53,620 bases of DNA from a virus (taxonomy: Duplodnaviria; Caudoviricetes): the IMG/VR virus record IMGVR_UViG_3300030085_004328, positions 1 through 53,620 of that record. One strand, given 5' to 3'. Shown here piece by piece: positions 3,612 to 51,236 of the stretch; position 1 is the first letter of the stretch, and each line of letters opens with the position of its first letter. The position numbers and the translations under genes are program-made. The notes beneath the pieces were generated by a model. It was not told the DNA's origin and searched no databases. It saw only the letters and a list, made by a program, of their open reading frames with translations.

Positions 3612-6600
3612 TTAGTCTCCTAGTGCTAGAATGAATGGTGTTACGTTGTTGAATAGCGACTTCAGGTAGGTTCTACCTGTAATCGTTCCAGTTGCTTGGT
3701 TGATGGTAACACCATCACCAATTCTAAAGTTACCTGCCTGGTCGGTAGAAGTATAGATGACTTCACCACCTTCTTCTTTAACAACCTCGTTTTCTTGGAT
3801 GGTTACACCACCAACACCAGGTCTTGCGGTGAAGATATCATTACCTGCACCAACATATTCAAACGAGTGAGAAGATGTGATTTGTAAACTCTGGCGGCTC
3901 AGATAAACTGTAGAACCAACAGATACATCATTATTTAACCCAGCAACAGCAGTGATAGTTGAAACTCCTGCTCTTGGGAAAGTTGCAGAACCAACCTTAT
4001 AATATAGAGGATCAGTCTTTGTTACTTCTGCTGTTGCAGTTACTCCTGCAGGAGGTGCTGCAATGCTTACATTTGGAGTTCTGGTCTCATATTGAGTACC
4101 AGTGTTAATCAGAGTAACCGCTGTAACTGCTCCATTCTCTACTGTAGGAATTGCCTGTGCGCCAATTCCATTTGGTCCTGTTGGAGCATCGATTGTAATA
4201 ATCGCATCGTTTGGAGTGTTATATCCAGATCCACCATTTGTAACGGTGATTGTATTTAGAGAGTAGTAAAGTTTATCAATGTAATAAACCTGACCATCAT
4301 AAGGTCTTTGTGTTCCAAGACCACTGACCTCTAATGTAATATCATTTGCATCTGCAGCAGTAACAACCTTACCTGTCTGTCTATAGATAGACTTAGTTGT
4401 AGCATCACTGATTCCGTTAGAGATAAGACCAATTCTTCCGAATGAAGAGTTGGAGTTAGTCAAGTCACACTGACCACCGCTTGCTGTTACGATTGCTTCG
4501 TCGCAGCAAATTGTGAAGATAGACACTAACTGAGCGTAGGATCCGTTTGTAATCGATACACCAATTCCTCTCTGGTTATACTGCGTATAAGAGTCAACCG
4601 ACATGGAACCCTGAACACCGATCTCATCCTCGTCTCCAGGTTCTGCAGCAAATCCATCAATCTTCAGACCAATGCTGTCGAAGATGAAGTTGGTGCAGTT
4701 TCTTACATATGGACCTTTGAAGATCTGTCCACATCCAGGACTGAAATTCGGGTCAGCATCTTCACCTTCTGCTGGGTTATAACCAGCACCATCGAATCCT
4801 TCAAATCTAGTGGTAATTCCAGTTGGATTTACTGGACTCTGAATTGCAGTAATTCCACCACCAACAATTGCAGTAACGATACCAATAACAGTATCAATAG
4901 CACTCTGAACGTTCTTACATCCAGCAGGGCTTGTGTTGCTGTTGACTCTAGGATCATACTGAATAGACTCATCTTTAATTTGTCCACCAGCATAATCAGA
5001 GTTCTTCGTGAATGGTTGGAACTTCAGAATGTTACCTGTATTATCATCATATGTGTGAGAAATTTCAGTAGGTCCAAAGTTTGTGGTGAATGTTGTAGGT
5101 CCAACAATTGAGTCAACATTAAAGATATTTCCAAATGTTCCATCTGGGAATACTGTTGTTGTAATTCCGACGAAAGCAGAACCACCACCAATGTAAGTAT
5201 GATCTAGTGTTGAAACACCAGCATTAACGGTAATAGAACTTGCGATGGAGAGTGTTGGGAAGTTATTCAGGTTTCCTGCTCCAACGTGAGTTGTAACAAT
5301 ACCAATCAGACTATCAATAGAAGAACGAATATCTGCACATCCTAAAGGATCTGTATTGACTCCAACTGCAGGATCTGCAGTAATTGTTGTATCTCTATAA
5401 TTAAGAACATTATTAATAGCTAATTTTGAATATGCTGCAATAGAAGAGAATGCAGTTACAGACTCTGACTCTTCACCAATTAATCCACCACTAATTGGAT
5501 TACCAACGGCATCAAAATACTTTCTAGTGGTCTCTCTAATATTTTTATTGCTATCTGTTCTTAAGTCATCGATTAGAGAATCAACAACATATGCAATATC
5601 TCTTCTACACTTAAATTCTCCACCTGGGAAGTTACCATAATTAATTGTAAGACCATTGATAACATTAAGATTTTCTGACTCAATAGCTTCTGTTGCAATA
5701 CCGACTAGGTTATCAATAGACGCTTGAACATCACTGCAAGAATATGTCTCACTATTTCCAATAGCAGGGCTTCCATCACCAAAATAACTAGATCCTCCAG
5801 AAACTGTAGTATCTTTAGTTGATAACTGGTTAGCAATCGCCAACTTCATCTGATCTCTTGCTGTGTCGAAAGCGAGAATAGATTGTACTTCTTCGCCATC
5901 AAGACCATTGGTGAGGAAATTTCCAGACGCATCAAAATACTTTTTAGCAAAAGCAATTGAATAATTATTTCCACTGGTGAAAATATCTGTCGAAACAGCA
6001 TCTACAAGATAGTTCAAGTCTCTCTTACACTTATCTTCAGTTCCAGATAATCCGGGATATTCTGTGACCATTGTAGTCCATGCTGTCCCAACAATCTCAC
6101 CTTTATTTTGTTGAATCAGACGATATGCATCTTTATATCTAGAAGTTGTTGTGATTGAGGAATCTCCTGGGAAGAAGAAATCTGGATGAACGATTGCAAT
6201 GTTTGCAAGAGCCTTATCTGTGATTTCTAGTTTGTTACCAGCAATCAGGTTTGCAGAATCTTGATATCTGTCTCCACCAACTTTCTCTACTGGGAAGTCA
6301 TATCCAACAGCACCTGATGGGAAGAACTGGGTTGAAAGACCACCACCAGAGTCGCACTGGAACACTAATTCTTCGAGACGAACTGTTCCATCATTCTCAA
6401 TGTATGCTGGATCATTATCAGAAGAATCTGTTCCTACAGGATCACTGAATCCAATAGTTGTAAGTCCAGTTAGTCTATCGTAAACAGCAGAATTAATTCC
6501 CACACTTGGAGTGTATCTACGGAAAACTTTTGTTTGTTCTGTATTATAGTTTATAGTAAGTCCACCAGCTCTGTTCTTACCAATTCTTGCTACAAATGTT

Positions 6601-27775: not shown

Positions 27776-34399
<6,624 letters not shown>

Positions 34400-34405: not shown

Positions 34406-35959
34406 TTAGAATTGCAAAATGACCTTGATATCTTCTTTTTGACTCTTTGATCTTGTGATCGCCGGTCTATTATCGACATATATGATGTCTCCTGAGTATT
34501 TCTTTACTTCTGGAGGTGCAACACCATTGGTAAAGTTTTGACCCAGGTTATATGTAGTATTATTTATAGAGGTAGTTATACCGCTAAAGTTTGCATCAAT
34601 CTGAAGTTCAACAGATCCTCCACTGATAGCCAATGTTCCACCATCATCAGTATCTGAAGTAAACCTAGTCTGAACATATCCATATTCTGGAGTCCTTTGA
34701 GATCCGTCAGTATTAAATCCAACTTGTGCTTTATCCTGCCAGTACTTAAGAACACCAGTAGTTTCATCGTAAGAAACTACTCTACCTACCGCAGTAGTTC
34801 CCACTCCAACTTCTTGAGTTATTTCACTATCAAAAACAAAAGATGCGGAACTATATCCAATACCAGTAAGTTTTAATGCATAAACAGCACTAACTTTATC
34901 ATCAGTTAGTAATTCGTTGGATCCTGGTTTAGTTGGATTATGAACAATACCCACTCTAGCAATTTGGTTTCCGACAATAAAGTCCGGATTATCAGAATCA
35001 TTTTCGACGCGGGTGTACATTAAAACATTAGTCGCTCCCATTTCTTTGTAAATGTTAGCTCCATGACCTCCTGGAGGAGGAATAATAACTTCAAATTCTG
35101 GTACAGTTGTTCCAGAAAGAAGAGAAGAGTTTGAAAGATCAACTCTTCCGTGAGTATAACCTTCTCCTCCATCAGATACAGTGATACTATCTACTTTAGA
35201 GTCGTTATTTACAACAATAGTACATTCTGCATCTTCTCCATCACCACTAATTGGAATATTTGAGTAAGTTACTCCACCAGTTCCTAATCCAGCACCTCTA
35301 TTTGTTATTTTTACAATTTTTATCTGACCACTGGTTTGTGCATTATCTCTAATAGAATCAAAAGTTGCATCTGTTTCCCAATTTTTAGGAACGGGGATAA
35401 AATTAACAGAGTCAAACTTTACAATATCCGATGGTTTAATAGTGTATAGATATTTCCATACATATCCATCACCACTATCTCCAGGAATTTGTGGTTCTAA
35501 ATCTGTGAATAGAGGTTCATCAAGAGATGGTCTTCCTTCTGGATTTTCTGGGTCGGAACCATTTTGCAAGCAAATATAAACTCTAAAGTCGCTATTCATC
35601 ACATAAAAGTTTGATGAATAAAGACTTGTAGCGTTTGATGGTTTAGCTAAGTTTGATCTGCTAATATCATGACGATACATATCGTAAGTAGTACCAGAAC
35701 TCCAAGTAATTTTTCTAATTACTTGACGAATATCTACAGCGGATATTTTCTTCATCGCAACCATAGTGTCGTAATAATCAAACTCCTGCTCAAAAGAGTC
35801 TTTTGGGGCAGGAGGGGATGCATCCCAGTTGCTAACGACATCCGTGGGATTAGGAAGTCCTATAAAAGCATAGAATACATTATTTTCCGTATCTTCTGCA
35901 AGATCTAGAAAATTTTGCGTATTCAAAATTCTAATTTGATCAGTTATGATTGCAGACAT
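34406..35959 (-). CDS. gp8: Baseplate wedge subunit
   Basis: MSAIITDQIRILN...YDMYRHD...FYVMNSDFRVYICLQNG...DGYVWKYLYTI...QKEDIKVILQF. Confidence 0.93.
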   Translation of the reverse strand: MSAIITDQIRILNTQNFLDLAEDTENNVFYAFIGLPNPTDVVSNWDASPPAPKDSFEQEFDYYDTMVAMKKISAVDIRQVIRKITWSSGTTYDMYRHDISRSNLAKPSNATSLYSSNFYVMNSDFRVYICLQNGSDPENPEGRPSLDEPLFTDLEPQIPGDSGDGYVWKYLYTIKPSDIVKFDSVNFIPVPKNWETDATFDSIRDNAQTSGQIKIVKITNRGAGLGTGGVTYSNIPISGDGEDAECTIVVNNDSKVDSITVSDGGEGYTHGRVDLSNSSLLSGTTVPEFEVIIPPPGGHGANIYKEMGATNVLMYTRVENDSDNPDFIVGNQIARVGIVHNPTKPGSNELLTDDKVSAVYALKLTGIGYSSASFVFDSEITQEVGVGTTAVGRVVSYDETTGVLKYWQDKAQVGFNTDGSQRTPEYGYVQTRFTSDTDDGGTLAISGGSVELQIDANFSGITTSINNTTYNLGQNFTNGVAPPEVKKYSGDIIYVDNRPAITRSKSQKEDIKVILQF

Positions 35960-35981: not shown

Positions 35982-35988
35982 TATTTAT
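35982..35988 (-). promoter_or_regulatory. Late promoter ATAAATA overlapping the gp7 stop
   Basis: About 23 nt upstream of gp8. Confidence 0.7.
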
Positions 35989-38900
35989 GAAAGATAATTG
36001 GAGGCTTTTAATGGATTCTTTCTTCTCAAGATAGGTGATGTTTCAATACCAATAATACCATTGTCTCTCTTGATATCATAAGACTCTGGGAAGGGTCTTA
36101 CGACATTATCCAGTCTTCCCCAAGAGAAGTTTGCAAATGTTTGTCTAGAGAGGAATGAAGAAAGTCCAAGTTGAGAATAATCTTCAACAACAGTAACAAC
36201 TTTAGTATTGTCTTCGATAATCAATGTTGCTCCATCGGCAACAGTTGTAGAATTTCCAGATCCAACAGAATAAGAACCAAGTCTTGTTAGACTTGCAATG
36301 AAGTCATCACTGAATATTACGATTGGAGTTCCAGGAATAATATCATGAACTTGATATACATTATCAATGAATTGATTTCCTTCAACCAAGTCAACTCCAT
36401 CCACTTCAATTGAAGTAACACCATATCCAACTGTTGTTGCATTTCCAACCGTGGAATCTCTTATAGTAAAGAAGTCGCCAGTTCCGATTCCACTGTAATC
36501 AATTGTGTTTCCAGTACCAACAATTGTTTCATCTTTTAAAGGTGAGTTTTCTGGAATAGCAAATTCAAACACAAGACCTTGAGAAGATCCTGCTCCAATT
36601 GTTGTTGTTCCAACTCCAATAACTTCACCAAAGTCTCCTGCAAAGTCAACTCTGAATACTGTTTCCGATTTTGGAGTTGGAGGTGTAATAAGGACTGGTG
36701 GTGGGTTATTATCATCATATCCAGTTCCACCAACAGAAATGTTAATGGTTGTTATCTTACCTGATGCGATAGCAGCAGTAGCTTCTGCTTGAGTTCCACC
36801 GTCTTCTTTTGGCGCTCCAATAGAAACCGTAGGAATTTTAAAATATCCGTCTCCTGTATTGGTTAGAGATATTTGAGTAACAATTCCAGCAGTTACCGAA
36901 GCAGTCGCTACTGCTTCGTTAGTTTCGTCTTGGTCAATAATATCAACAGTATTTACATAATTTAATCCTGGGTTTTCTTTTACATTATCAAAGAAGGTTT
37001 TTGCACCTTCAATCCAAATTTGAGTGCTTGCAGCGCCAACATCATAAATGATATTGGTTAAAGGAAGAATTGCTGCTTCATAGATATCTCTTGCTTTGGT
37101 AACTTCTTCACCGTCAATAATAAGGTCAGTAGTTGCTCGACACCAGTTAACTGGTCTTTCGACAAATTGATCATTACTGATTCCAACACCACCATACAGA
37201 TAAGTATCAACAGAGTCAGTAGAAGTAACTGCTTTAACAGATCTATCTGTTTGTCTTAGATCAATATCATCTCCACCAATTGTGAGAAGATCTCCTGGAG
37301 AAACTGTCTCAAGAATATCCACAAATTCAACATCTATATCTCCAGTTCCTCTATAGAAGATAATTTTGCAAGTATCTCCAATCTTAGGAGCTTCAGTAAA
37401 TCTAAGTGTACTACCACCTGGGAATACATATGCTTCTCCAGGAACCTGAAGAACATCATTAATAAAGACAAGGAGTGTTGCCTGAACATCAATTAGAGAT
37501 CCTTTAGCAGCCTTAATAGATGTTCTAACACCATCAAATTTAATAGCAAATCTGGTTGCATCTCCATTAAACTGAGAACTGATATCATCAACGACTTGGA
37601 GGTCTCCGATTGTCCATCCAGTAAATTGATCAGTTTGAGTCTGGGTAATATAGAAGTTGAATTCCTCAAAATCTAATGTTGTTGGTAGGGTAAATGTTGG
37701 TTTAGCAGAAGGAGACTGAACCACTGGAGCATATGCCGCACCATCACCTATAATTGTTGTAACAATTCCAACAAGATTGTAAATCGAAGATACTACATCA
37801 GAGCAACTATCAAGAGTGTAGGAGGATCCATTATCATAATCAATTGATGTGTCTGTAATCTGAGTAACAGAAACTGCAATACCTTGATATGATGTAGGTA
37901 AAGTTTGGTTATTTATGACGTATGTTGAGATACCAGCGAGATAATCATAAGTTGCAATAGTTTCTGTGGTTTCTCCAGTCACATAATTTAGAGGACCATT
38001 CCAATACTTGTTACCTGCTGCAACTGAATTAAAGTTTCCTCCAAAGAAAAGATCATTTGCTAATGCATCAACAATGAAACCTGTGTCTCTTTCGCACTTA
38101 GTTTCATCATAATCTGGGTTAGAAAGTAGAGAGGGGTATGTAGCTGTTGCATATCCGACAGCTTCCTTAACAAGGAATTGTCTGTTAGAAGCGAGAAGAT
38201 TACCAGCATCAGCAAATCTTCCATGATACATGTAAGGAATTCCATCAGTTCCACCAACAGAAACTGTTAGTACGTTGTTGATTTCATATCCATATCCAAC
38301 ATTCGTAATATTAAAGTCAGTTACACTAGATCCTTCTCCAACAACAACACTAACCTTTGCAGCTCTTCCTCCAGTATCTCCGATTGAAGTTGTAGAGTAT
38401 GATGTTGGAAGATTATCATATGGGAGGGGATCATCAAAATCAACAGTTAGATATTTCGCAACTTTACCACCTCTAGCATAGAAGTGATCGAGTGTAGAAA
38501 TACCAGTGTTAACCTCAAATTCAGTATCACTGTTAACTCTTCTTACGCTTGTAAATTGAGAAGCAGGATCAGACTGACTATCAGAATTATTTTTAAGTCT
38601 TGGAGCAATAATTATACCCTGAACAGTTCCACCACCTACAAAATAATTTTGTTGTGTTGTAACTCCAATATTTACTTCAAATTCCGTAGCACTGTTAACC
38701 GCAATAACTCCTGTTCCATTGTATGCAGGATCAGTTGTTCTTGGATATGTATGTACAGTTGCTCCATTATCTTGAGTGCATGTAAATGCAAGTCCAGATA
38801 GAATAACTTGACTGAGTTTTCCGAATGAAGTATATCCATGACCCACAGAAGTGGTAACAGTCATAATTCCACTTATATGATCATACTGAGCGGTGGATAC

Positions 38901-41900
38901 TCCTAGTGGTGGAGCATAATCGCAAGTCATTGCGATTCCAGACAAGACAACTTCATTACCTACCGATAATCCATGTGCTGTAGATGTTGTAACAGTTGTT
39001 AGACCTGTTATTGAAGTGTAACCAACATTAGATACATCTCTAGGTGCATAGAAGACTTGAGGATTTGTAACAGCCACTCCAGTAACTCTTCCTCTAGTAA
39101 CAAGAGCTGTTCCTATTGCAACTTTACTTGATGCCTCTACTGTCTCTTCGCGAATATAAACTTCAATGTTAGTCTGAATACCAGTTCTGTATCCACCACC
39201 TGCGTTAGAAACGTTGATAGCACTAATAGTTCCTGCAGAAGAAACTGTAGCGGTTCCAGCGGCAGATACTAGAGACTGATAACCAAATCCCTTTGTAGAT
39301 CCAACAGAAACTATTCTTCCCCCAACAGGAAGACCTTTAATAGCAATATCATCTTCTCTATCATATTCTCCCTCATCAAAAATAATATTTGTTGCTCCAC
39401 CATCTTCTTCTAAAGTATAGTTTCCAGCAATATCAACAAGAGTTTGATCTACTTTAGGAGACTGGAATAAATCATTTACAGTAATAATAGCATTACTTGC
39501 TGCTACTCCATCAACACTTTCTCCACCAACTTTCAATTCAAAAGAACTCTTAATTCCAGTAAATTGATCTTCAATACCATCAAAAACATAGTTCTTATAG
39601 TATGGATCATTTGTAGTATCAACTGGTGCATTTCTCATGAATGATCTTCCACTAAATCTAGAGAAAGTCGTAATTCCAGTGAAATCTCTCTGATCTGGAC
39701 GATTATCTGGAGATCCTACTGGTGTTTTTCCAAATGGAGCATCAGCAAAACTGATAGTATTTTCAACAATATTATAATTACCAATAATTTTAGTTATCAA
39801 TGAGTATTGAGCATGATCTGCTAGTTTTGTACCGAGAAGTGCTCTCTGAACGTACATATCATTATCAGAACCACCATATCCAACAATGGATACTCTTACA
39901 ATTTCATCATCAATTTGGAGGAAATCTCCACTGAAGAATCTTTCTGGTTGTTCAGTTAGAGTAAGAATGTCTTGAACAGTTGTAAAGGTATTACCAACTC
40001 CAGTTGTAGTTGCAGTAGAAACAATAGGAGATTGAATCATATTATCAATAGTAATCAGAGTCTTAGGATTCTGATTTTTTGATGTAAAGTAATGATCTGA
40101 TCCAACGCCAACATCAATTATATTCAAAGGTGTAGGTGTTAGTGCTAAAGCGTCTGTAGCACTAGCCGCCACTTTAACAAGAAGTTCATCCTGTTTAATG
40201 ATGAATAATGTGGGTGGTAATTTATTAGTTACTCCAATTCCAGGAATATCTGTATAGGCTATTCCAATTGGTTCATTTAACACATCATAAGAATATACAA
40301 CTTCTTCTCCTGTTACAAAGAAGTGCTGAGGTAACTCAAAAGTATCTTCACTGATACTAGTAATAGCAACATTAGATCCATCGAATTTTTTCTGGAAGAT
40401 TGGATTTCCTTCATGGAACAATTCAAAGTCTCTTATCACTGCATTCTGCGTTCCTTGATAATCTGCATTTCCAGTCAGAATATCAGCATTGATCATATCA
40501 ATTTGAGCGTTACCCACTCTTTCATCTCTAATTCCAAGGTGTTGAGCATAAACTCTAACTTCACAATCAATTGGATCATTCGCACTAAAGTAAATTGTCG
40601 TAACTGTTCCTGCAACACCTGCAGTAACTACACCAACCTCACCATCACTGAATAGTTGACCATATTCTGAATAATATGCAGTTGTAGAAGATGAGACAGT
40701 TACTAACTCAGACAGTTGATACTTGCCATTAGTGGTGTCATCAACGCTAACAATGTAGTAACCACTGCTGTAATCGTCAATACCTAAAATTCCATTAAAG
40801 TGAGAAGATATTCCTGTACCATTTTGACTATCTACAGCATCAATTGATGTATAATTAGATTCTACAATAGCGGTAGTAAATTCTGTGCTTCCTTCAGTAG
40901 TAAATCCAGAAGGTTCGGATGCAAGAGATATTCTTAAAGAATTAACTTCAGCCGCTATTGCAGAATTATCTGGAATTAAATCAACTTTTACATTAGATCC
41001 ATCAATATAAGCATGATATGTTCCAATACCATCACTAGATAATGCATTTAAAGTGTCTGTGGTTAATTGACCATAATCCTGGAAAGTTACTTCCGATCCG
41101 TCATGAATTAGGCTAATTTCGTCTAATTCATATACACCACCACCTTCTTCAATTTGAACAAGTAGTTTAGAAGATCTGTAATCTGTGGGGATTGTTGCGA
41201 TCGTGGTAGTAGCACCAGAAGAAACGGTGCTATTTTCCACTTTAATATCAACAACATTACCAAATGCAGTGGTTCCAATTCCTGAAGTGAAATCGGAAAT
41301 ACTATGAGTGACGAAACTTAAATCATAATCATTAACTTCATATTTTTCTGGATAGAATCTTAACTGAGCTTCATCCTCAAACAGTGCAATATCAAAAGAT
41401 CCTAATTCATAAACAGTTTCTACACGTCCATATTGATTAATAAAGAATTCACTACCATTATGAATTGTTGTTACAATATATACTTGTCTTTGATTTGTAA
41501 ATCTACTATCTCTAGCAAATATTAAATATTTTCTAGCTCTAGACTCAGTTATTTTGAAAGTATCAATTACACTAAACTGATCTCCTCTTGGATCGCTATT
41601 GAAATCATCACTAATATCATCGATAACAAGAACTCTGTTACCAACAGACTTGTTAAAGTCTTGCAATTCTCTACTATTGAATACGATACCAGTGGAGAAT
41701 CTCTTACTACCAATAATGAGAGTTTCATCAACAGTAATATCAAAATCGAATACACAATTTGTATTAACTACTCTTGAGAAATCTGCGATAGAAACAAAAT
41801 CTCCTCCATCTTGAGATGTAGAAATTCCAGTGAATGAAAGATCTCTAGATTCTAATTGATAGTTACTAAATCTCTTCCATCCAACGAGATGATTAAGTCT

Positions 41901-44900
41901 TTCAACTTCTTCTTCCCAAACATTTTCAGTTACTGTACTTTCGATTGCATATGAGAATCTCTGCCAGTAGAAACTATCTTGAATCTTATAATCATTTGAA
42001 CTTAAGAAACTATGACCATCTTTGTAACCTTTTACAATTTCAGCTGAGGGTTGAATCTTGTAATATAAATCGGAGAGATAAATATCATCAATTTTAGAAA
42101 CTGTTCCGCTCTTATCTCCTACAATTTCTTCATTTAGTACAAAAGATTCCTCTCCAAATATTTTCAAGATCTCTGCTTGCTCATTATATTTTTGAACTTC
42201 TGCCTGAGCCCCACTTGTTCTTCCTGTAATTAATTCTCCAGGAATATATGGAATTCTTTGTGTTGTTACTGCAAATGTTGGGAAATAAATTTCTGGGACA
42301 ACAATTCCTGTAGCACTAACATCATCGTATTGTCCAAGAGTTTCTGCAGATCCTACAGACTTAGACATATCAAATTTAATAGTAGCGTTTGACCCTCCAA
42401 AATTTGGATCAATTTCGGTTATTTCAAATAAATCATAATCAAAATCAGCACTATTAAAAGTTCTACCAGAACTACCGGTAGTTTTTGATGCACAACCTTC
42501 AATTAGAACATTATTACCGACTTCAAATGGGAAAGTAGTTCCAGTGCTAAATTGAGTCTTGAATGTTAAAGTTGCAATCTTAGTGCTATCGTCAATAGTA
42601 ATATTTTCTATACTATAACCATTGGAATTATTAGTGGGTATAATGATGGGAGTATCGTTAGATAAATCACTTGTATTCTTAATAATTGTAACATCTCCAT
42701 CAAGATTATAATTTAACAGTAATTCAGTTAAAACTTTTCTAGTTGTACTATCTCTTACGACAAGATCTGGAGCTACATTGTAGTTCAATCCTGCAGTTAA
42801 TCTCGTTATCTTATCAAAAGAAAGTTTTTGGTCAACAATTAATACATCCGGAAGTTTAGCTGTTGGACTTAAAGTTGGGTCTGTTGGATAGTCCCAACCA
42901 ATATTTTCGGTTAAGAAAGTTTTTTCAGCACCAATAGAATCACTTTCTGGTCTAATTTTTGCTCCGGTTCCACCACTTTGACTTATAATAGTTGTTACTC
43001 CAACAACTGTATTATAATTATTTCCTGGATTTCTTACTAAAATATCAAATATTGGACCAGTTGCAGTAGGAGAATTTGTAATATATTCTATAGTACTATC
43101 TGATGGTGTAAATGAGGTGACTCCAATGATTCTGTTCGGTGTATCAAAGACAAAAGAAGATGTTGCTGCAGAAACAACTACATGACTTCCATTAATGGGA
43201 CTATTTAAAAATGCAATTTTTGTGGGATCAGAAACCTTATAATCATCAATAATTAAATCTTTTTTACTCTGAGTTAATCCAGGATCTTTTTTAGGAACTA
43301 ATTTATAGAATAGTTGTTCTGGAGTAAGTTCATTAACTAAAATTTCTACATATGCATCAGAATCTAATCCTATCCTTCCTGATGAAGTGATAACAAAATT
43401 ACCATCTCTATCTACTAAGTACTCTCTCTTATATTCATCATCATAGAATACTTTAAAATCAAATGCTGATTTTGAAGTAGTTCCATCAATATAAGATAGA
43501 GAAGGATCTCCCAAATTAAATCTTAGACTATTATTTCTAATAGATCTAATTTCTGGATTTACTAATCTCAATCTAAAAGATCCAGCAGATGTTATATTAT
43601 GAGTTTTAGTCTCTTCACCTACAGAATCTTCGTACGAAGATGATAAAGAGAAAATATCTCTAGTAATATAGTTGGTATAGTAAATTCTATTATTGTCTAG
43701 TCCACCAGCTTCTGAAGCAATTACAATTACTTTATCACCATCACGATATCCATGATCAGTTGAATGTATTTGATTTTCATCTACATCTACATCACTGGAT
43801 ATAAATGTTTTTTGATCAATAAGAATTCTGTTTGTTACGTCATTGTAAAATACGTCATATTCTTCTCTTCCTCCTGGAAGAATATTTGTTCTGAATCGAT
43901 CTTCTGCTTCTAATCCATGAGTTTCTCCAGTAGAAACTGTACATCTAGTTTTTGAAACTTCAACAAAAGCATGATCTCTTTTTGTTCTAAAACTATGATG
44001 TTTACCAGTACCAACACCAACAAAATAGAAAGGTTCTGCGTTTACATCAGTTCCAACACCAACTAATGAGATTGGTTGGCCAGGTTTTCTATAAAACTCT
44101 GTTCCAATAGCAAGTTGAACCGTTGATATTCCTATAGTATTTCTACTGAATACAACAGCAAAAAGTTCAGTTTCATCTGCTAAGGTAGTAGATCCAATAC
44201 CATTAGTTGATATTGAAAGATTATCCCCAGTGTTTGAATTGTATATAATTTTCTCTCCCATCTTCAATCCATGACCAGGAATAAAGATTGATCTTGTGCC
44301 AATAGAGATTTTTCTATATGATTGGGGTCCTCCAGGGAAGAATGTGCGATTACCAGGTATGTGTATATACACATCTGTCTTTATACCTATTCCAGAAGTT
44401 GTTCCTATGCCAACTACCAATGATGGATCAAAATATAATTCTCTATCTTCTTTAGATATGTTACTACTTTCTGTATTGATATCAATCTCAAATCTTGTAG
44501 GTAAGTGATCTATTGAGGTTTCTAAAGAGTGTGCTACCCCAACAGTTCCATCATGTTCTCTTAGTACTCTTAAAAATGATCGTCGAAGATTAACATTGAG
44601 AACTTTCATTTTCTCATCATCAATCTGAATGATATCATTTTCTCGAATCTTATTCAGAGATTCTGTTTTTACTGGTATGTAAGTAGTAATACCAGTATCT
44701 GCAGATCCACCAATATCTTTGTTAAGGATAAAATCGATAGATGGTATTCTTACTGGAGAAATACCATCTATATGAATATTATTTGCAGTGGATAAACCAA
44801 CAATTGATACTAAGTCATTATTAGATATTCCATGTTCTTGACCACAGTGAATATGAAGACTACTTGTTGACTGGAATGCTTTTGCTTTTAAATAAGTTTC

Positions 44901-47900
44901 AGATAAAGCTATTGATGTTACAGATTTTCCTTCAACCTCGGATACAATAGCTGCGGCACCCGTTCCTCCAGTTCCAACATTGTCGAAACTAACAAAGTCA
45001 TTTACAGTATATCCCTCACCTTTATCTAAAATTTCAATATCGTCAATTTTTCCCTTAGAAAGATTAGTGACTTTAGAATAATGAGCATCAAAAACATCTG
45101 GTTGAATTAGATAATCATAACCACTATACCACTGTTTTAAGTTATATGGTGTAGTATTTCTTCTGCACCCCTCAAAATCAAATTCAACCTGATTAGTTTC
45201 TGTATTTTCACTGTAATTAAATAAAATTGGTGAAAACTTTAGATTTTTTCCAACACAATACGGATATTGTGGTAATTTACCCTGAGAAAAATCACCAGTT
45301 GCTTGAATTTCCTCAGAAATAGTCATAAAGTATGCATATACACCTTTAGGATATTCCGGTGTTATGCAGAATCTTCCATTATTTTCATCCAAATCTCCTT
45401 TTCCGGTAAAAGTATTATCTTCATTAAAGAATCCTAACGGAAAATTAGGTCTATCGCCAATATCTATTTTTTCATATCCAGAAACTAACTGTTTGATTGT
45501 TCCACCACTAATGGTGGAATAACCGTATGGACCATAAATTGGAGAACCATCATAAGCCCATCCCAATAAAGGAGAGTGATATTTTGCTGTGTTTTCTGCA
45601 TCATCATTTTCAATATCAGTTCTGTATTTAATTACACCCTCTTCAAATTTCTCTGAGAACACGTTTGCTCTTAATTTTCTTGGAGCATACATGTGAGTAT
45701 ATTGCATACCAAGTTCTCTATCCAAACTCGGTACAAGATAGCTATCATCAGATGTAATTGATTTTTCTCTTATAAGTCTTTCTACCTGATCAACATTCCA
45801 TGATTTTATTTGAAATTCAAGTTCACATCCTTCTCCTGGTGTCTCTATGTAAAATTTTGGAGTCTGGCTATAAGAATTTCCCTTTTCTATTATTTTTACA
45901 TCACTAATTGCACCATTACTTACTATAGGTGTTAAAACAGTTTGCGAAGTTTCTAATTCTGGATCATTTTCAAATAATGTGATTTCTGGTGCTGCATTAA
46001 AGTCTCTTCCTCCAGCAAGAATAACAACATCTTCCAATCGTCCATCAAAAATAACAGGTTGTAAAATTGCTCCACTTCCTGATAATAAGTCATATCTAGG
46101 TTGTTTTTTGAAATTTAAAATATCTGCAGATCCATATTTTGATCCACCCTCTTTGATTTCTACCTTTATGACTTCTCCTCTAAAAAGAGGATTTAATTTG
46201 ATTTTACTAGTTTCAGTTACAAAAGTAGATACTCCAAGTGTTCCTGCAATTTCAACAGTTATCGGAGGTGCTTTAAATGTATGATAACCATCTGGTGCAG
46301 ATGCAATTTCTACTAATTTGTTACTATTAACATAAGCATTTCCAAGATCTTCATCTTCATTTTTTTCATATAAAGAAAAAGTATCTTCAGTACTATTTGT
46401 TACTAAGTAAGTAATTGTGCTAGCAAGACCGCTAATTGCATCTCCAGTGTGCTCATATAAAACTTCATCATTATCTTTGAATAAATGATTTGGTTTTGTT
46501 ATTGTATAGTTGGCGGTATTAATACCAGAAGATGTAACAATTACTTTATTATTATTGTAACCCTCTCCTTGATCTGCAATATCTATAGAACTTAAAACAA
46601 GTCTTTGTTCGACAGCTCTTATACTATGATTACCAACACCCAAAGAAGTAATGTCTATCGGATTAATACCCTCAAGACCCTCCTCCAGAGTATTATGTAA
46701 ACTGACCGTAGTAGAACTTTCTATATGAAGAAAGTATTCATTGGTGTCTACTAATCCACCAACAGGTGTTGATTCACCCTCAACAGAATAAAATACTTGA
46801 TCACCTTCTCTAAATGAATGAGTTTCTTCAAAAGTAATTGTGTTATTAGTTAAAGAAACTTTTTCTCCAACATCTGATCTGAAAAATTTCTTGTTTTCTC
46901 TTGAAGAAAATGTTGGAGCTGCCTCTGCAATTCTGACTGGATTTCCTCCGCGTATTGTTACAGAATCTGCAAACTTCAGATAATCCATTCCTGGATCTTC
47001 GATGTTTATCTTTTGGAGACCTCCTCTAACCACAAGTTGACCTTCAAAACCTGATCCGTTTGAATCTGTAGTGAATAGTGTTGGTGGATTTATAACATCA
47101 TAACCACCTCCACCAGAAGTTACAGTTACTTCCGAAATTTCTCCATAATAACAAAAATCTTTAGACCTATTTGTAACAATCTCAACACCATTTTTTAATA
47201 TTCCTACTCTTTCGTTAGATTCAATCTCCAGAGATTCAGAAACTTTGGTCCTTTCTTTTGGATTTGATATTTTTCTTAAGGCAACCTGCGGTTTGACTTC
47301 TGTTTGCTTATTGAAAGCATAGTTATCAGTTCTAAGTAATTTTGCAAAATCTACAAAACCAGTGGCTTCAATAAAAATTTCATTCTCTACATTACTTAAA
47401 CTTTTTGCTAACTTAAAATTATTTTCATCAACTCTTTGGACAAAATAATACCCAGAAAGATCTACGGTATTCTCTTCAGAGAAAGAGGAATCATAGTATA
47501 CAGAATCTCCAGTATAAAGACCATGATTATTAACTGTAAAAGTTTTTGTACTAGCAAAAACCTGATCAGAAATTACAACATCTCTATAATCTAACTTAAG
47601 ATCTTCATTAAAATAATTTGGAAGTGAGTTTGTTGCAACATATACGTCATTCTCTAAATCAATATAAACATTTTGAACATTAGCTGCTATTTGCGTGCCC
47701 TTAGCTTTTGTAACTTTTCTTTTTACATAAAAAGCTTCTACAATTTCTCGATCATTAAGAATTCTAAAAGAATCATCAGGAGTAGGTCCAGGGGATGCTT
47801 CAAATTCTTTTTCAATTCTCTCTAAAGATCCATCCGCATTTCTAACATCACAATTTACAAGTACGATGTCTCCACCATTTACTCGACACTTATCATAAAC

Positions 47901-49313
47901 TGTTATTGCATAGTTATTATTTCCTTCATCGTCTATAAAAGCAACTCTATTAGAAATTGCATGATTAAACATCCATTCAGATGCTTTTAAATCATCTGTT
48001 TTCTTTCCTATTCTCCATACTTTTGCATAATCACCAATTTCTGAGTATGCAGTTTTTTTACTTTCTACTAATTCTCCTAAAACTCCAGAAACACGCATTC
48101 GCACTTCTTCACCATCATCATCGTATGAATAAACATACGAATTCATTCCTATAGTCCAACCAGCTTCAATACCTCTAGTAACTCCAGTTACATTGAGGAA
48201 CTGGTTTACACTTACACCATCATAATTAACGAGCATATACTCGTCATCAAGACCAGCATCTTCATCTCCATTGAAAAGAACAAGAAGTTCTCCAGACTCA
48301 CTAAAACCTAAAGTAGTGTCAACAGTTATTACACTAGCACCAACAGATATATTCTCTACAGTTTGAGTTTGGGAGTGTATAGTAAACTCTCCAAATACTG
48401 TTCCAGTAACGTTTAGATCTCTATTGTAACCATAATCTAAACTAATAACAAAGTATTCATTACCATTTTTTTCAACTTCTTCTACTCCAACAACCGTTCC
48501 ATATGCAGTATCAATATCTCCATCTGCCTCTTGATACAAAACTCTGTTAAGAATTTCTACAGGGTTTCCTTCTATTTCTTCAACAACAAGATTTATAGTT
48601 TTTCTATAATCAGCAATTGATGGTGTAAATAAGAACTCTCTGGGTCTTATAATTTTTGGAGCAGTTCCATAGAGAGCCTTAAACAGAATGATAAAAGAAT
48701 CATCAGTTCCTTTAGAATTATAAAAATCTTTCAGTTGCTTTATGAATAAACTTTGATTAAGACCTTCAGCAAAGCTAACATTTTCAAATCCAGGAGCAAA
48801 TTGAATTTTTAATTTGGTAAAAAATTCATCTAACAATAAAGCATTGAGGTTACTGACTAATGCACCTGAAAGGTGTTCATCAACACTTGTTTCTTCAAAT
48901 TTTAATAAATCAGTGGTTCCAGGATTATCATAGTTTGTAATTCCACTAAAACCCCTTGTACATTGCTCAAATGTCGTAGAAGTCTTAGTTTTATAGTATA
49001 TAATTTCATCATCAATTTTGATCATCCCATTCTCATAGGGATAACCTTTAGTGGAAGTTACGGTTATAGTATCATCAAAAGTATCAACATCTTCTGTAAG
49101 TTCTGTTGTTGCAATAGAATCTGCAACAAAATCCAGTTTAGTATAAGTGTCTGGATTTGTTAGTAGGTCATAAGTTTGACCAGGATTTTCAAGATATCGA
49201 TAATATTCTTCTAAAAATTCTACAAGAAATGGATAATTTTCTTGTGCAAAAAGGGGTAGTTGACTCTGAACTACTGACGTTAATCTTACTTTGTTGGTTG
49301 AACTTCCGTGCAT
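35985..49313 (-). CDS. gp7: Giant baseplate wedge initiator (4442 aa) with many accreted domains
   Basis: Lies between gp6 and gp8. QLPLF..ENYPFLVEFLEEYY, IKQLKDFYNSKGT..SFIILFKALYG, IQDSFYWQRFSYAI...LNHLVG. Contains a YHYH-like segment GWAYDGSPIYGPYGY. Confidence 0.88.
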   Translation of the reverse strand: MHGSSTNKVRLTSVVQSQLPLFAQENYPFLVEFLEEYYRYLENPGQTYDLLTNPDTYTKLDFVADSIATTELTEDVDTFDDTITVTSTKGYPYENGMIKIDDEIIYYKTKTSTTFEQCTRGFSGITNYDNPGTTDLLKFEETSVDEHLSGALVSNLNALLLDEFFTKLKIQFAPGFENVSFAEGLNQSLFIKQLKDFYNSKGTDDSFIILFKALYGTAPKIIRPREFLFTPSIADYRKTINLVVEEIEGNPVEILNRVLYQEADGDIDTAYGTVVGVEEVEKNGNEYFVISLDYGYNRDLNVTGTVFGEFTIHSQTQTVENISVGASVITVDTTLGFSESGELLVLFNGDEDAGLDDEYMLVNYDGVSVNQFLNVTGVTRGIEAGWTIGMNSYVYSYDDDGEEVRMRVSGVLGELVESKKTAYSEIGDYAKVWRIGKKTDDLKASEWMFNHAISNRVAFIDDEGNNNYAITVYDKCRVNGGDIVLVNCDVRNADGSLERIEKEFEASPGPTPDDSFRILNDREIVEAFYVKRKVTKAKGTQIAANVQNVYIDLENDVYVATNSLPNYFNEDLKLDYRDVVISDQVFASTKTFTVNNHGLYTGDSVYYDSSFSEENTVDLSGYYFVQRVDENNFKLAKSLSNVENEIFIEATGFVDFAKLLRTDNYAFNKQTEVKPQVALRKISNPKERTKVSESLEIESNERVGILKNGVEIVTNRSKDFCYYGEISEVTVTSGGGGYDVINPPTLFTTDSNGSGFEGQLVVRGGLQKINIEDPGMDYLKFADSVTIRGGNPVRIAEAAPTFSSRENKKFFRSDVGEKVSLTNNTITFEETHSFREGDQVFYSVEGESTPVGGLVDTNEYFLHIESSTTVSLHNTLEEGLEGINPIDITSLGVGNHSIRAVEQRLVLSSIDIADQGEGYNNNKVIVTSSGINTANYTITKPNHLFKDNDEVLYEHTGDAISGLASTITYLVTNSTEDTFSLYEKNEDEDLGNAYVNSNKLVEIASAPDGYHTFKAPPITVEIAGTLGVSTFVTETSKIKLNPLFRGEVIKVEIKEGGSKYGSADILNFKKQPRYDLLSGSGAILQPVIFDGRLEDVVILAGGRDFNAAPEITLFENDPELETSQTVLTPIVSNGAISDVKIIEKGNSYSQTPKFYIETPGEGCELEFQIKSWNVDQVERLIREKSITSDDSYLVPSLDRELGMQYTHMYAPRKLRANVFSEKFEEGVIKYRTDIENDDAENTAKYHSPLLGWAYDGSPIYGPYGYSTISGGTIKQLVSGYEKIDIGDRPNFPLGFFNEDNTFTGKGDLDENNGRFCITPEYPKGVYAYFMTISEEIQATGDFSQGKLPQYPYCVGKNLKFSPILFNYSENTETNQVEFDFEGCRRNTTPYNLKQWYSGYDYLIQPDVFDAHYSKVTNLSKGKIDDIEILDKGEGYTVNDFVSFDNVGTGGTGAAAIVSEVEGKSVTSIALSETYLKAKAFQSTSSLHIHCGQEHGISNNDLVSIVGLSTANNIHIDGISPVRIPSIDFILNKDIGGSADTGITTYIPVKTESLNKIRENDIIQIDDEKMKVLNVNLRRSFLRVLREHDGTVGVAHSLETSIDHLPTRFEIDINTESSNISKEDRELYFDPSLVVGIGTTSGIGIKTDVYIHIPGNRTFFPGGPQSYRKISIGTRSIFIPGHGLKMGEKIIYNSNTGDNLSISTNGIGSTTLADETELFAVVFSRNTIGISTVQLAIGTEFYRKPGQPISLVGVGTDVNAEPFYFVGVGTGKHHSFRTKRDHAFVEVSKTRCTVSTGETHGLEAEDRFRTNILPGGREEYDVFYNDVTNRILIDQKTFISSDVDVDENQIHSTDHGYRDGDKVIVIASEAGGLDNNRIYYTNYITRDIFSLSSSYEDSVGEETKTHNITSAGSFRLRLVNPEIRSIRNNSLRFNLGDPSLSYIDGTTSKSAFDFKVFYDDEYKREYLVDRDGNFVITSSGRIGLDSDAYVEILVNELTPEQLFYKLVPKKDPGLTQSKKDLIIDDYKVSDPTKIAFLNSPINGSHVVVSAATSSFVFDTPNRIIGVTSFTPSDSTIEYITNSPTATGPIFDILVRNPGNNYNTVVGVTTIISQSGGTGAKIRPESDSIGAEKTFLTENIGWDYPTDPTLSPTAKLPDVLIVDQKLSFDKITRLTAGLNYNVAPDLVVRDSTTRKVLTELLLNYNLDGDVTIIKNTSDLSNDTPIIIPTNNSNGYSIENITIDDSTKIATLTFKTQFSTGTTFPFEVGNNVLIEGCASKTTGSSGRTFNSADFDYDLFEITEIDPNFGGSNATIKFDMSKSVGSAETLGQYDDVSATGIVVPEIYFPTFAVTTQRIPYIPGELITGRTSGAQAEVQKYNEQAEILKIFGEESFVLNEEIVGDKSGTVSKIDDIYLSDLYYKIQPSAEIVKGYKDGHSFLSSNDYKIQDSFYWQRFSYAIESTVTENVWEEEVERLNHLVGWKRFSNYQLESRDLSFTGISTSQDGGDFVSIADFSRVVNTNCVFDFDITVDETLIIGSKRFSTGIVFNSRELQDFNKSVGNRVLVIDDISDDFNSDPRGDQFSVIDTFKITESRARKYLIFARDSRFTNQRQVYIVTTIHNGSEFFINQYGRVETVYELGSFDIALFEDEAQLRFYPEKYEVNDYDLSFVTHSISDFTSGIGTTAFGNVVDIKVENSTVSSGATTTIATIPTDYRSSKLLVQIEEGGGVYELDEISLIHDGSEVTFQDYGQLTTDTLNALSSDGIGTYHAYIDGSNVKVDLIPDNSAIAAEVNSLRISLASEPSGFTTEGSTEFTTAIVESNYTSIDAVDSQNGTGISSHFNGILGIDDYSSGYYIVSVDDTTNGKYQLSELVTVSSSTTAYYSEYGQLFSDGEVGVVTAGVAGTVTTIYFSANDPIDCEVRVYAQHLGIRDERVGNAQIDMINADILTGNADYQGTQNAVIRDFELFHEGNPIFQKKFDGSNVAITSISEDTFELPQHFFVTGEEVVYSYDVLNEPIGIAYTDIPGIGVTNKLPPTLFIIKQDELLVKVAASATDALALTPTPLNIIDVGVGSDHYFTSKNQNPKTLITIDNMIQSPIVSTATTTGVGNTFTTVQDILTLTEQPERFFSGDFLQIDDEIVRVSIVGYGGSDNDMYVQRALLGTKLADHAQYSLITKIIGNYNIVENTISFADAPFGKTPVGSPDNRPDQRDFTGITTFSRFSGRSFMRNAPVDTTNDPYYKNYVFDGIEDQFTGIKSSFELKVGGESVDGVAASNAIITVNDLFQSPKVDQTLVDIAGNYTLEEDGGATNIIFDEGEYDREDDIAIKGLPVGGRIVSVGSTKGFGYQSLVSAAGTATVSSAGTISAINVSNAGGGYRTGIQTNIEVYIREETVEASSKVAIGTALVTRGRVTGVAVTNPQVFYAPRDVSNVGYTSITGLTTVTTSTAHGLSVGNEVVLSGIAMTCDYAPPLGVSTAQYDHISGIMTVTTSVGHGYTSFGKLSQVILSGLAFTCTQDNGATVHTYPRTTDPAYNGTGVIAVNSATEFEVNIGVTTQQNYFVGGGTVQGIIIAPRLKNNSDSQSDPASQFTSVRRVNSDTEFEVNTGISTLDHFYARGGKVAKYLTVDFDDPLPYDNLPTSYSTTSIGDTGGRAAKVSVVVGEGSSVTDFNITNVGYGYEINNVLTVSVGGTDGIPYMYHGRFADAGNLLASNRQFLVKEAVGYATATYPSLLSNPDYDETKCERDTGFIVDALANDLFFGGNFNSVAAGNKYWNGPLNYVTGETTETIATYDYLAGISTYVINNQTLPTSYQGIAVSVTQITDTSIDYDNGSSYTLDSCSDVVSSIYNLVGIVTTIIGDGAAYAPVVQSPSAKPTFTLPTTLDFEEFNFYITQTQTDQFTGWTIGDLQVVDDISSQFNGDATRFAIKFDGVRTSIKAAKGSLIDVQATLLVFINDVLQVPGEAYVFPGGSTLRFTEAPKIGDTCKIIFYRGTGDIDVEFVDILETVSPGDLLTIGGDDIDLRQTDRSVKAVTSTDSVDTYLYGGVGISNDQFVERPVNWCRATTDLIIDGEEVTKARDIYEAAILPLTNIIYDVGAASTQIWIEGAKTFFDNVKENPGLNYVNTVDIIDQDETNEAVATASVTAGIVTQISLTNTGDGYFKIPTVSIGAPKEDGGTQAEATAAIASGKITTINISVGGTGYDDNNPPPVLITPPTPKSETVFRVDFAGDFGEVIGVGTTTIGAGSSQGLVFEFAIPENSPLKDETIVGTGNTIDYSGIGTGDFFTIRDSTVGNATTVGYGVTSIEVDGVDLVEGNQFIDNVYQVHDIIPGTPIVIFSDDFIASLTRLGSYSVGSGNSTTVADGATLIIEDNTKVVTVVEDYSQLGLSSFLSRQTFANFSWGRLDNVVRPFPESYDIKRDNGIIGIETSPILRRKNPLKASNYLS

Positions 49314-49319: not shown

Positions 49320-51236
49320 TTAATTTCTGATTAGGTTCTCCGCGAAGTCAAAGTAACTAGAACTCCTAATATATGTAGCGCCTGACAGATCACTTCCTGA
49401 GGAAATTCTATCTACAACAGCATTAATATCACTCTTTGAAACATCTAGTTGCAAATACAAATCTTGAAGTCCAATAATATCATTAGACTCAGGAGAAGCT
49501 GATATTTCAATTACAGGACTTCCATTTAAATTTTTAACTGTTGATTCAATCTGAATATTGAAAAGCATAATTTCACCCTTAATATAATCTATGGTTCCAA
49601 CTTCCCTTTGAATTTGAGTATCATTATTTCCTGTTAATCTAAATACAAACACTTTTCCTACATTAGCATCATCACTAGGAACATCCCCTAGATATACTGT
49701 TCCTTCAATACCATCGATGGTAAATCCACTAGATCTAATGTTATAGTTTCTTTGCTCATGAAGAATTCTAATCGGGTTTCCAAAACAAATCTCGTAAGTA
49801 GCAGTAGCATTGGTAGTTGTTACTATGTCTCGTCTCATCTGAACATTGGTTATGTTGGATTCAACAGACCGGTGTGTATTATCAATTAAGTTACTAACTC
49901 TACTGTATTTAAATCTAGTACCTACACCATTCATCTCTGCAGATTTAGCGTAACTGTTTAGATTATCAGTAACTAAACTTTGAAGAGCTGACGCTGAAGA
50001 AATTTTAGCAGGATCAAAATAAACTTGAGATTCAACTTCAATAAACAGAAACTTCATATCAACAATTTGAACATCTACACCAGTAACTGCATAACTTCTT
50101 ATATTGGTTATCAAATTTCTTTTATCCAAATCAGTCATGAATTGACTATACTTTGGTTTGATTGCTATAAAAACTTTTCCATATTCTGGAGGATCTAAAG
50201 TTTCACCACCATACGCGGAAACAATCTCAGCCTCAGGATAAATTGTTGGAACTATTGCTTCATAATCATTAGCAGTAACTGCCCTGCTCTGTGCTTGATA
50301 AACTTTAGTTGAATACTTTTTAATAGAATCTATAGATTCAATATCTTCGCCAAAAATAGATGGAGCGATGGTTTCTAAAGGACTAATACCCTCGGTAATA
50401 ACTGCTCCATCATTATCAACTATGTTGCCGGCAAAACTAAATCCTCTTATGCCGTTACCAGCTGCTCCCCTACTCATTACATAAGAAACATCAACGATAT
50501 TTCCAGATTCTAGTGCTTTACCAAAAATATTATCACCAAAAATTAATTCATATCTTTGATCTTGAACTTCTTGTATGAAAAATACGTTTGCATTTTCTTT
50601 TGCTTCAAATAGATTATTGATCAACTTAAAAGAGTCACCACCAGTAGATGTTGAAGATTTTCTTACCTTTACACTTAATGATGTGGTGTCTACATTTGGA
50701 TTATTCAGAATAATTCTAGGATCTCTAACATCAGGATCATATGTATGAGATTCTTCTACAATTACACCTTCTAATATTTCAGTGTCTGCAAATAATGCAG
50801 TATTACCTACTACGGGAACTGTAATATCATCCGTAATCACAAAGGTAGATGTAGTAGAACCGGGGTTAGATTGAGATACTGCAACTAATCCTTTTTTTAA
50901 TGTTATACTAACTGGTTTAGTTTCAAATTCACCAAATGATACTATGAATGAAATAGCCGCTCTTGCAGCGCGTTTTGGGCGGGGTACATAACCAATATTT
51001 CTTGCTAGTGATACTACGTTCTCTCTTAATGTAGCACTATCAATGAATACCTCATTGCTAACCATGTTAGCGTTGAATGAAGCGATATATGTGTTATATG
51101 CAAGCGTATCAATTAAAACCGATAAGTTGGATCCCTCAAAGTCATAGTCAGTAAACGTTGAGTTTGACTTTAAATGATCAATAATTGATTTTTTGATCTG
51201 TGTAAAATCTAGATTTGAAAAATTTATTAAAGACAT
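49320..51236 (-). CDS. gp6: Baseplate wedge subunit
   Basis: LDFTQIK...DYDFEGSNLSVLIDTLAYNTY...NEVFIDSATLRENVVSLARNIGYVP...RAVTANDY...PPEYGKVFIAIKP. Confidence 0.96.
   Translation of the reverse strand: MSLINFSNLDFTQIKKSIIDHLKSNSTFTDYDFEGSNLSVLIDTLAYNTYIASFNANMVSNEVFIDSATLRENVVSLARNIGYVPRPKRAARAAISFIVSFGEFETKPVSITLKKGLVAVSQSNPGSTTSTFVITDDITVPVVGNTALFADTEILEGVIVEESHTYDPDVRDPRIILNNPNVDTTSLSVKVRKSSTSTGGDSFKLINNLFEAKENANVFFIQEVQDQRYELIFGDNIFGKALESGNIVDVSYVMSRGAAGNGIRGFSFAGNIVDNDGAVITEGISPLETIAPSIFGEDIESIDSIKKYSTKVYQAQSRAVTANDYEAIVPTIYPEAEIVSAYGGETLDPPEYGKVFIAIKPKYSQFMTDLDKRNLITNIRSYAVTGVDVQIVDMKFLFIEVESQVYFDPAKISSASALQSLVTDNLNSYAKSAEMNGVGTRFKYSRVSNLIDNTHRSVESNITNVQMRRDIVTTTNATATYEICFGNPIRILHEQRNYNIRSSGFTIDGIEGTVYLGDVPSDDANVGKVFVFRLTGNNDTQIQREVGTIDYIKGEIMLFNIQIESTVKNLNGSPVIEISASPESNDIIGLQDLYLQLDVSKSDINAVVDRISSGSDLSGATYIRSSSYFDFAENLIRN

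Follow-up and report, generated by a model that had tools for sequence, protein, structure and literature searches.

The 53,620-nucleotide window analysed here (positions 1 to 53,620 of the IMG/VR record IMGVR_UViG_3300030085_004328, a virus of the Caudoviricetes) encodes on its minus strand a giant gp7-like baseplate wedge protein, and within this protein lies a 157-residue domain that resembles the globin core of phycobiliproteins. The domain had been noticed in a preliminary description made from the sequence alone. It is now well supported, by sequence comparison and by structural modelling, that this domain is homologous, though diverged, to the phycobiliprotein globin core, of which it comprises helices A to H and lacks X and Y; equally well supported, from its alignments, is retention of the Cys-x-Arg-Asp bilin-site motif. 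The features of the locus are as follows.

34406..35959, minus strand: gp8-like baseplate wedge protein (Pfam Phage-Gp8, E 3e-15).
35985..49313, minus strand: giant gp7-like baseplate wedge protein, 4442 amino acids (aa) (PHROG 2885; gp6 and gp8 neighbours).
37749..38219, minus strand: phycobiliprotein-like (globin-fold) domain, residues 3699-3855 of gp7, 157 aa (P0001), identified through AlphaFold2, structure search, Foldseek, profiles and hhalign.
37803..37805, minus strand: codon of Cys139, immediately ahead of the last helix (140-155); possible counterpart of the beta-153/155 site (model helix boundaries, forced alignment).
38079..38099, minus strand: K41-C42-E-R44-D45-T-G47 motif, with the Cys42 codon at 38094-38096 (HMMER and hhalign alignments).
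49320..51236, minus strand: gp6-like baseplate wedge protein (Pfam Gp6-like_1st, E 1.8e-17).

The domain peptide is the minus-strand translation of 37749-38219, 157 codons that make up residues 3699-3855 of the 4442-aa open reading frame (ORF); the plus strand at 37748-38219 is riddled with stop codons. The segment first proposed is real, with a start, 37748, that was set one base too low: 157 codons require 37749. Arithmetic from the translation assigns the two cysteine codons singled out at that time, 38094-38096 and 37803-37805, to Cys42 and Cys139 of the domain.

Residues 4-3687 of the ORF match PHROG 2885, annotated 'baseplate wedge subunit', with 2828 bits. At the protein's amino terminus the Pfam family Baseplate_wedge scores 24.9 bits, under its cut-off of 27. 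Together, the gp6-like and gp8-like flanking genes and the PHROG 2885 match indicate that the 4442-aa protein takes the place of gp7 in a baseplate module of T4 type, and the original placement of the domain inside baseplate gp7 is borne out. The protein resembles T4 gp7 in its place between gp6 and gp8 and in its wedge-subunit family. Unlike T4 gp7, which is about a quarter of its size, it carries two extra domains: a YHYH domain (residues 1241-1334) and the phycobiliprotein-like domain, which begins just beyond the end of the PHROG 2885 match (residue 3687). The YHYH domain (Pfam PF14240, E 5e-21) is encoded at 45310-45591 of the window, minus strand.

Predicted structure and sequence profiles converge on the phycobiliproteins. 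Termed A1, an alignment of 34 instances combines the copies of the window with two orthologous ones and with a single stretch taken from each of 29 proteins. From A1, AlphaFold2 produced a model (pLDDT 89.4, pTM 0.87) with helices at residues 2-11, 13-27, 29-33, 39-59, 63-74, 84-102, and 140-155, and with a long loop (residues 103-139) where phycobiliproteins have the G-H loop. This model, which covers the 157-aa domain only, was aligned exhaustively to 48,161 PDB representatives. The best match is phycoerythrin beta (5aqd_M; Z 15.4, root-mean-square deviation 2.4 Å, 142 residues aligned, 18% identity), with model residues 1-157 superposed on chain residues 34-183. The first eight rows are all biliproteins, among them, behind the best match, allophycocyanin (Z 13.3) and the bilin domain of ApcE (12.9). 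Lower down stand photocobilin (11.4), then globin-coupled sensors together with RsbR-type globins, at about 11, and haemoglobins, at about 7. The structure tool cautions that helical folds may reach a Z of about 13 through arrangement alone. The top score lies above this level, and the ranking descends sensibly from biliproteins to globins. Foldseek against the PDB returned only biliprotein entries among the matches listed (TMq 0.50-0.71, 12-19% identity). Structure prediction and Foldseek, proposed in the preliminary description as a refuting test, thus gave a globin-like fold nearest the phycobiliproteins. Beta-propeller rows from ESM Atlas, all sub-threshold (best 0.86), were discarded.

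Searches with the domain's single sequence found nothing in Pfam or among PDB sequences. Profiles reach further. With A1, HMMER searches of all PDB sequences yielded 58 matches at E<=10, of which 56 are phycobiliproteins; the remaining pair, both RipA, have E near 8. In the best match, to C-phycocyanin alpha (CpcA; 8iml_A, E 5.2e-5), the A1 consensus 'KCkRDvgY' falls on 'KCARDIGYY'. A second profile, A2, built from a 12-member subfamily alignment whose members carry a second cysteine, reaches R-phycoerythrin beta (E 7.4e-5, query residues 3-136 on chain residues 38-176). For profile-profile comparison by hhalign, cyanobacterial phycobiliprotein genes were gathered by a degenerate motif scan, and 60 alpha and 60 beta subunits were used. 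The alpha subunits were matched with a probability of 95.9% (A1) or 95.6% (A2), and the beta subunits with 86.6% (A2) or 53% (A1). The Pfam phycobiliprotein family, PF00502, is matched at E<=10 by 10 of the 34 family members, with a best E of 6.3e-4.

In both HMMER and hhalign alignments, the window's KCERD falls on KCARD of CpcA and on AACLRD of the phycoerythrin beta subunit CpeB. It is the cysteine of the phycobiliprotein Cys-x-Arg-Asp motif, at the alpha-84 / beta-82 site on helix E, that carries the bilin. The profiles thus place the KCxRD cysteine on the phycobiliprotein bilin cysteine, as expected from the earlier suggestion that KCxRD.G follows the phycocyanin core.

Conservation of this motif was evaluated in 1636 domain instances, collected by local jackhmmer from 150 listed phmmer proteins and two window proteins. 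These copies are about 30-35% identical to the query, and they retain Cys42 (96%), Arg44 (96%), and Asp45 (99%), along with Asp56 (99%) and Tyr72 (99%). Closer to the window, KCERDTG is kept in seven of eight close orthologues. Among 48 copies from 11 cultured cyanomyoviruses, the first cysteine is present in 44 and the aspartate in 46. Across the family no partner cysteine is conserved, which argues against a disulfide role for Cys42. One 74%-identical orthologue on an IMG/VR contig (L008:2151-2624) runs about 25 residues out of register across KCERD, without a stop codon, and then regains frame; possible causes are two compensating indels or an assembly error.

The second cysteine has a narrower distribution. 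Position 139 is mostly Ile across the 1636 copies, and so Cys139 is not a family-wide feature. Cys139 is found in all seven close orthologues that extend over this position, in 28 of the 37 such copies of the 11 cultured cyanomyoviruses, and in every closing-helix copy examined of the giant proteins of S-PM2 and Syn1. Conservation of the two cysteines therefore holds family-wide for the first, and for the second only within a cyanomyovirus subfamily. Forced global alignment by hhalign places Cys139 on the cysteine of the beta-subunit 'GDCs' sequence, with low column confidence. We take this 'GDCS' to be the site of the beta-153/155 bilin cysteine, which lies in the G-H loop ahead of helix H and is the target of T-type lyases. 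The available text of one source states that CpcT serves Cys-153 of phycocyanin beta (PMC10452541). Equivalence of Cys139 to the beta-153/155 bilin site is, from model and alignment, likely but unsettled.

A Cys42-Cys139 disulfide was considered and rejected: the second cysteine is missing in most of the family. The equivalent sites lie far apart in phycobiliproteins.

The module recurs in giant tail and baseplate proteins of many cyanophages. A phmmer search of 1.84 billion representative proteins returned 1021 matches at E<=1e-3, 289 of them with E<=1e-30, a resemblance well beyond chance; heading the list are giant proteins in which as many as 34 stretches match. With the domain as query, tblastn found 351 of 50,697 phage records, all named Synechococcus, Cyanophage, Prochlorococcus, or Marine. 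Two other family queries, which include non-domain regions, found 287 and 445 records with the same kinds of names; the exceptions, two 'uncultured' and one Pelagibacter, come from these two queries. That the domain might be equally common in phages of non-phototrophs, a refuting condition of the preliminary description, is at odds with these almost exclusively cyanophage-type or Marine names. Structure matches in BFVD are to cyanophage or uncultured Caudovirales proteins named only 'tail protein', 'structural protein', and the like, and none bears a biliprotein name.

Cellular genomes gave a different picture. No match at E<=1e-6 was found with A1 in 401 sampled Cyanobacteriota genomes, and a search of five cyanobacterial genomes produced a single weak match (E 0.009), as against 1e-18 to 1e-45 in phage records. 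Strong matches in phage records, with none in the 401 genomes, indicate that the domain is a phage branch and not a current host gene. No free-standing form was found: a search with A1 for homologues of near-domain length gave only nine fragments.

Within the window, a phmmer comparison with all ORFs located relatives of the gp7 domain only in a fibre-like protein about 30 kb away, as the preliminary description had it.

3612..8738, minus strand: 1708-aa fibre-like protein (P0003) with the remaining domain copies (phmmer, hmmsearch).
4866..4964, minus strand: lone closing helix with Cys, P0003 residues 1259-1291 (phmmer, hmmsearch).
5286..5663, minus strand: copy at P0003 residues 1026-1151, without the leading helices, with KCRRD and the second Cys (phmmer, hmmsearch).
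5685..6140, minus strand: copy at P0003 residues 867-1018, full length, with KCKRD and the second Cys (phmmer, i-E 2e-14).
6891..7235, minus strand: copy at P0003 residues 502-616 (RCSRD), interrupted by a beta-type insert (phmmer, hmmsearch).
7659..8099, minus strand: copy at P0003 residues 214-360 (NCRDD), with a beta-type insert before the closing helix (phmmer, hmmsearch).

Five stretches of the 1708-aa protein, which matches no Pfam family, match the gp7 domain with i-E-values from 2e-14 to 0.099. Two copies (867-1018 and 1026-1151) are essentially whole, and isolated leading and closing helices are also present. Of all copies in the window, only that in gp7 gives an end-to-end alignment free of inserts; as first described, it is the best uninterrupted copy. 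The inserts of the fibre-like protein (residues 214-616) repeat a motif of the type 'GIATVTS.GHG', found likewise in gp7 just upstream of the domain; these beta-type inserts split the copies, and the domains therefore appear nested. The nearest available virus record (G001), which shares 36% of the window's sampled 31-letter words, has an identical layout of domain copies. Sharing of the module between at least two virion proteins is evident in both genomes. Its proposed mobility stands only in the sense of domain shuffling, as the gp7 and fibre-like copies are just 25-37% identical.

Fainter resemblances occur outside these two genes. A 333-aa ORF of the window (21194-22195, minus strand) weakly resembles the domain profile, with 'GEKRD' replacing the Cys motif; its counterpart, a small protein in the nearest record (G001:C1:21413-21589), matches the profile with E 4.5e-4. 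Other features of the tail module, all on the minus strand, are a Peptidase_S74 chaperone domain that ends a 731-aa protein (1059-3254), a bactofilin-like stretch in a 940-aa protein (16187-19009), and DUF4815 in a 2207-aa protein (27776-34399).

Elsewhere the domain forms long strings, of up to 34-35 copies per protein. A tandem-array subfamily was found in 55 IMG/VR loci. In three uncultured array phages of one lineage (G006, of 270,865 bp and CheckV 100%, G008, and G009), the array protein, of 2778 aa, contains 13 matched copies, and the 292-aa ORF behind it one more; these genes sit among tail genes. The G006 array (L038, 5669-13987, 2772 aa over these coordinates) consists mostly of units of about 105 residues without the last helix, with a 150-residue unit at intervals. 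Downstream, the smaller protein (L038, 13998-14858, 286 aa over these coordinates) has one degenerate copy without the Cys, and a collagen-like fibre protein of more than 3033 aa follows. The photosynthesis genes psbA and psbD are absent from G006, G008, and G009; all three carry a bilin reductase, an adjacent haem oxygenase, and CpeT. The notion that tandem-array phages infect non-phototrophs was accordingly set aside: psbA is lacking, yet the most complete of these phages carry cpeT, haem oxygenase, and bilin reductase.

Association with bilin-related genes was examined by six-frame search of 20 phage records: 14 T4-like cyanomyoviruses, five cyanopodoviruses, and T7. The domain is present in 11 (P-HM2, P-HM1, S-PM2, S-SM1, S-ShM2, S-SSM5, P-RSM4, P-SSM7, Syn1, Syn19, and Syn33) and absent from P-SSM2, S-SM2, S-SSM7, all five cyanopodoviruses, and T7. 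CpeT is found in nine of the 20 records, each of them domain-positive. Among the 14 cyanomyoviruses, nine have both domain and cpeT, two have the domain only, none has cpeT only, and three have neither (one-sided Fisher p = 55/2002 = 0.027, uncorrected for phylogeny). Bilin reductase, tried as a second co-travelling marker, showed no association with the domain and was dropped.

Gene order adds to the link with cpeT. In S-PM2 and Syn1, which represent two genera, cpeT lies 0.7-1.5 kb upstream of the giant domain-bearing gene, on one strand, and both loci (L090 152500-168500 and L091 18500-34000, respectively) share the order hypothetical GC730, cpeT, tRNAs, 2OG-Fe(II) oxygenase, giant GC734, gp12 short tail fibre. 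The gene cpeT is also found in G002, a relative of the window phage with 92% identity, in a region that lies outside the window. The usual reading of phage cpeT, as given in the available text of two sources, is that of a helper of host antenna synthesis (PMC2984593, PMC10452541).

A phenotype may be connected as well. According to the available text of Liu et al. 2019, phages P-HM2 and P-HM1 fail to adsorb in darkness, whereas dark adsorption is seen for P-SSP7 and P-GSP1 and, to a lesser extent, for P-SSM2 (PMC6628666). Adsorption of S-PM2, which like that of P-HM1 and P-HM2 requires light, is there described as independent of host photosynthesis; light-sensitive receptors or tail fibres are proposed, and no candidate molecule is named in that text (PMC6628666). 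The domain occurs in five copies in each of P-HM2 and P-HM1, in 11 in S-PM2, and in none in P-SSM2 or P-SSP7. Its presence therefore agrees with the adsorption phenotype, as published in that text, in five of five phages.

How does the domain compare with known systems? Its nearest relatives are the phycobiliproteins (PF00502): CpcA by sequence, and phycoerythrin beta (CpeB; 5aqd_M, 1lia_B) by structure and over full length. Shared features are the globin-type core (142 residues, 2.4 Å) and the K-C-x-R-D-x-G-Y in register with the alpha-84 / beta-82 site. A possible further parallel, in the cyanomyovirus subfamily, is a cysteine that in the model stands just before the last helix, recalling the beta-153/155 site. 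Unlike phycobiliproteins, the domain is embedded, singly or in tandem, in virion proteins of 1,700-6,000 aa, and has no X and Y helices, which serve alpha-beta pairing.

Embedding has a parallel in ApcE, whose bilin domain (4xxi_A; 7eyd, 7sc7, 9wg7) likewise belongs to a much larger multi-domain protein and matches the model with Z 11.7-12.9. ApcE differs in that it belongs to a cellular antenna and to no virus particle, and neither the A1 nor the A2 profile reaches its sequence. ApcE attaches its bilin without a separate lyase. Another parallel is offered by the bilin biosynthesis-associated globins (BBAGs) of heterotrophic bacteria (Rockwell et al. 2023, PMC10151467) and the photocobilins (8j2w, 8j2y; photocobilin Z 11.4), non-antenna bilin-binding globins that, unlike the phage domain, are soluble cellular proteins. 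The available text of Rockwell et al. calls the BBAGs self-assembling biliproteins, and its mentions of phage concern the PcyA/PcyX reductases, not globins (PMC10151467). Literature searches turned up no description of a phycobiliprotein-like domain in a phage structural protein.

The most likely function of the domain is bilin binding, a proposal to which we would give about an even chance. During virion assembly in an infected cyanobacterium, amid free bilins, the domain would take up a bilin. Cys42 would attach it by itself, in the manner of ApcE and the BBAG globins; in the cyanomyovirus subfamily, Cys139 may also bind a bilin, aided by the phage T-type lyase CpeT. Baseplate and fibres of the virion would thereby bear a small number of bilins. 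A more speculative step is that these pigments could render baseplate or fibre function light-dependent, which would explain the light-only adsorption of some cyanomyoviruses. That cyanomyovirus particles are biliproteins, with the bilins on gp7 and fibre domains (at C-x-R-D and at the CpeT-loaded Cys) acting as a virion photoreceptor that permits host engagement in the light alone, is possible, though rather unlikely.

Several observations weigh against bilin binding and the homology on which it builds. The literature search found no record of a pigmented cyanophage particle. The best Foldseek E-value is 4.4e-3, and no row reaches E<=1e-3. The window's own copy has no PF00502 match even at E<=10, and six-frame PF00502 scores in its relatives attain only 11 bits against a cut-off of 22.2. 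(The Pfam model is too distant, which is probably why the domain stays unannotated.) The N-terminal X and Y helices are absent: all alignments start at phycobiliprotein residue 34-40, and tandem units of 105-150 residues leave no room for them. The invariant residues Asp51, Asp56, Asn62, and Tyr72 differ from the phycobiliprotein residues at the aligned positions. In the cultured cyanomyoviruses, the Arg of C-x-R-D is kept in just 21 of 48 copies, and variants such as RCKTD and NCEDD are common. For the second cysteine, the beta-153/155 equivalence rests on a low-confidence forced alignment and on helix position, and local HMMER alignment instead sets Cys139 on a cysteine 11 residues further on.

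Gene associations and phenotype raise further points on the same side. S-ShM2 and P-SSM7 have the domain and no significant CpeT match. Bilin reductase, present in six of the 20 records, does not track the domain: two of the six, P-SSM2 and S-SSM7, are domain-negative, and five domain-positive phages have no reductase. Two tandem-array phages (G005 and G007) have none of the three bilin genes in their available DNA. The adsorption match comprises five phages and follows phylogeny.

Many of these points would suit a pigment-free structural bead: the globin core of a captured host phycobiliprotein gene, reused as a compact, stable spacer in which C-x-R-D holds the fold, for instance through a buried Cys and an Arg-Asp salt bridge. 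This alternative is possible, though in our estimate it falls short of an even chance. Strings of up to 34-35 copies per protein resemble a fibre building block, and many of the units are cut to about 105 residues, without the last helix. Loss of the X and Y helices, loss of the Arg in 27 of 48 cultured-phage copies, and the lack of association with bilin reductase genes fit equally, as do the family's own invariant residues Asp56, Asn62, and Tyr72, missing in phycobiliproteins. A spacer accounts less readily for a Cys (96%) and an Asp (99%) retained at bilin-contact positions in 1636 diverged copies that have no conserved partner Cys. Nor does it anticipate that cpeT never occurs without the domain in the 20 records, or that a second Cys stands at a lyase-type position in the very subfamily whose phages carry cpeT.

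Unlikely is a different ligand (haem, another tetrapyrrole, a metal, or a host surface component), with the domain as a receptor-binding or sensing module. The biliproteins, which fill the first eight structure rows and are alone reached by sequence profiles, stand against it, even though the model is matched with Z 7-11 by haem globins and by sensor globins of the globin-coupled and RsbR types. The invariant Asp, Asn, and Tyr could build a different site; the conserved motif is nevertheless the bilin motif, and among the nearly invariant columns no conserved His was identified at a proximal-histidine position. Finally, a chance or convergent helical bundle with C-x-R-D is very improbable: such bundles often score middling in structure searches, and the Foldseek E-values are 4e-3 or weaker, yet structure search (Z 15.4), HMMER against the PDB (56 of 58), and hhalign (95.9%) agree as independent routes, with the motif in register in all three.

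With this homology the phycobiliprotein family, so far known from antennae and from a few bilin-binding globins that are soluble, extends to virus particles. Moreover, two open questions of cyanophage biology become testable: light-only adsorption and the role of phage cpeT. A bilin-site domain in baseplate and fibres is a candidate for the light-sensitive component of adsorption. Should the domains bind bilins, each tandem array would amount to a naturally occurring string of fluorescent protein modules; and if bilin-bearing virions do act as photoreceptors, phage cpeT would gain a phage-encoded substrate.

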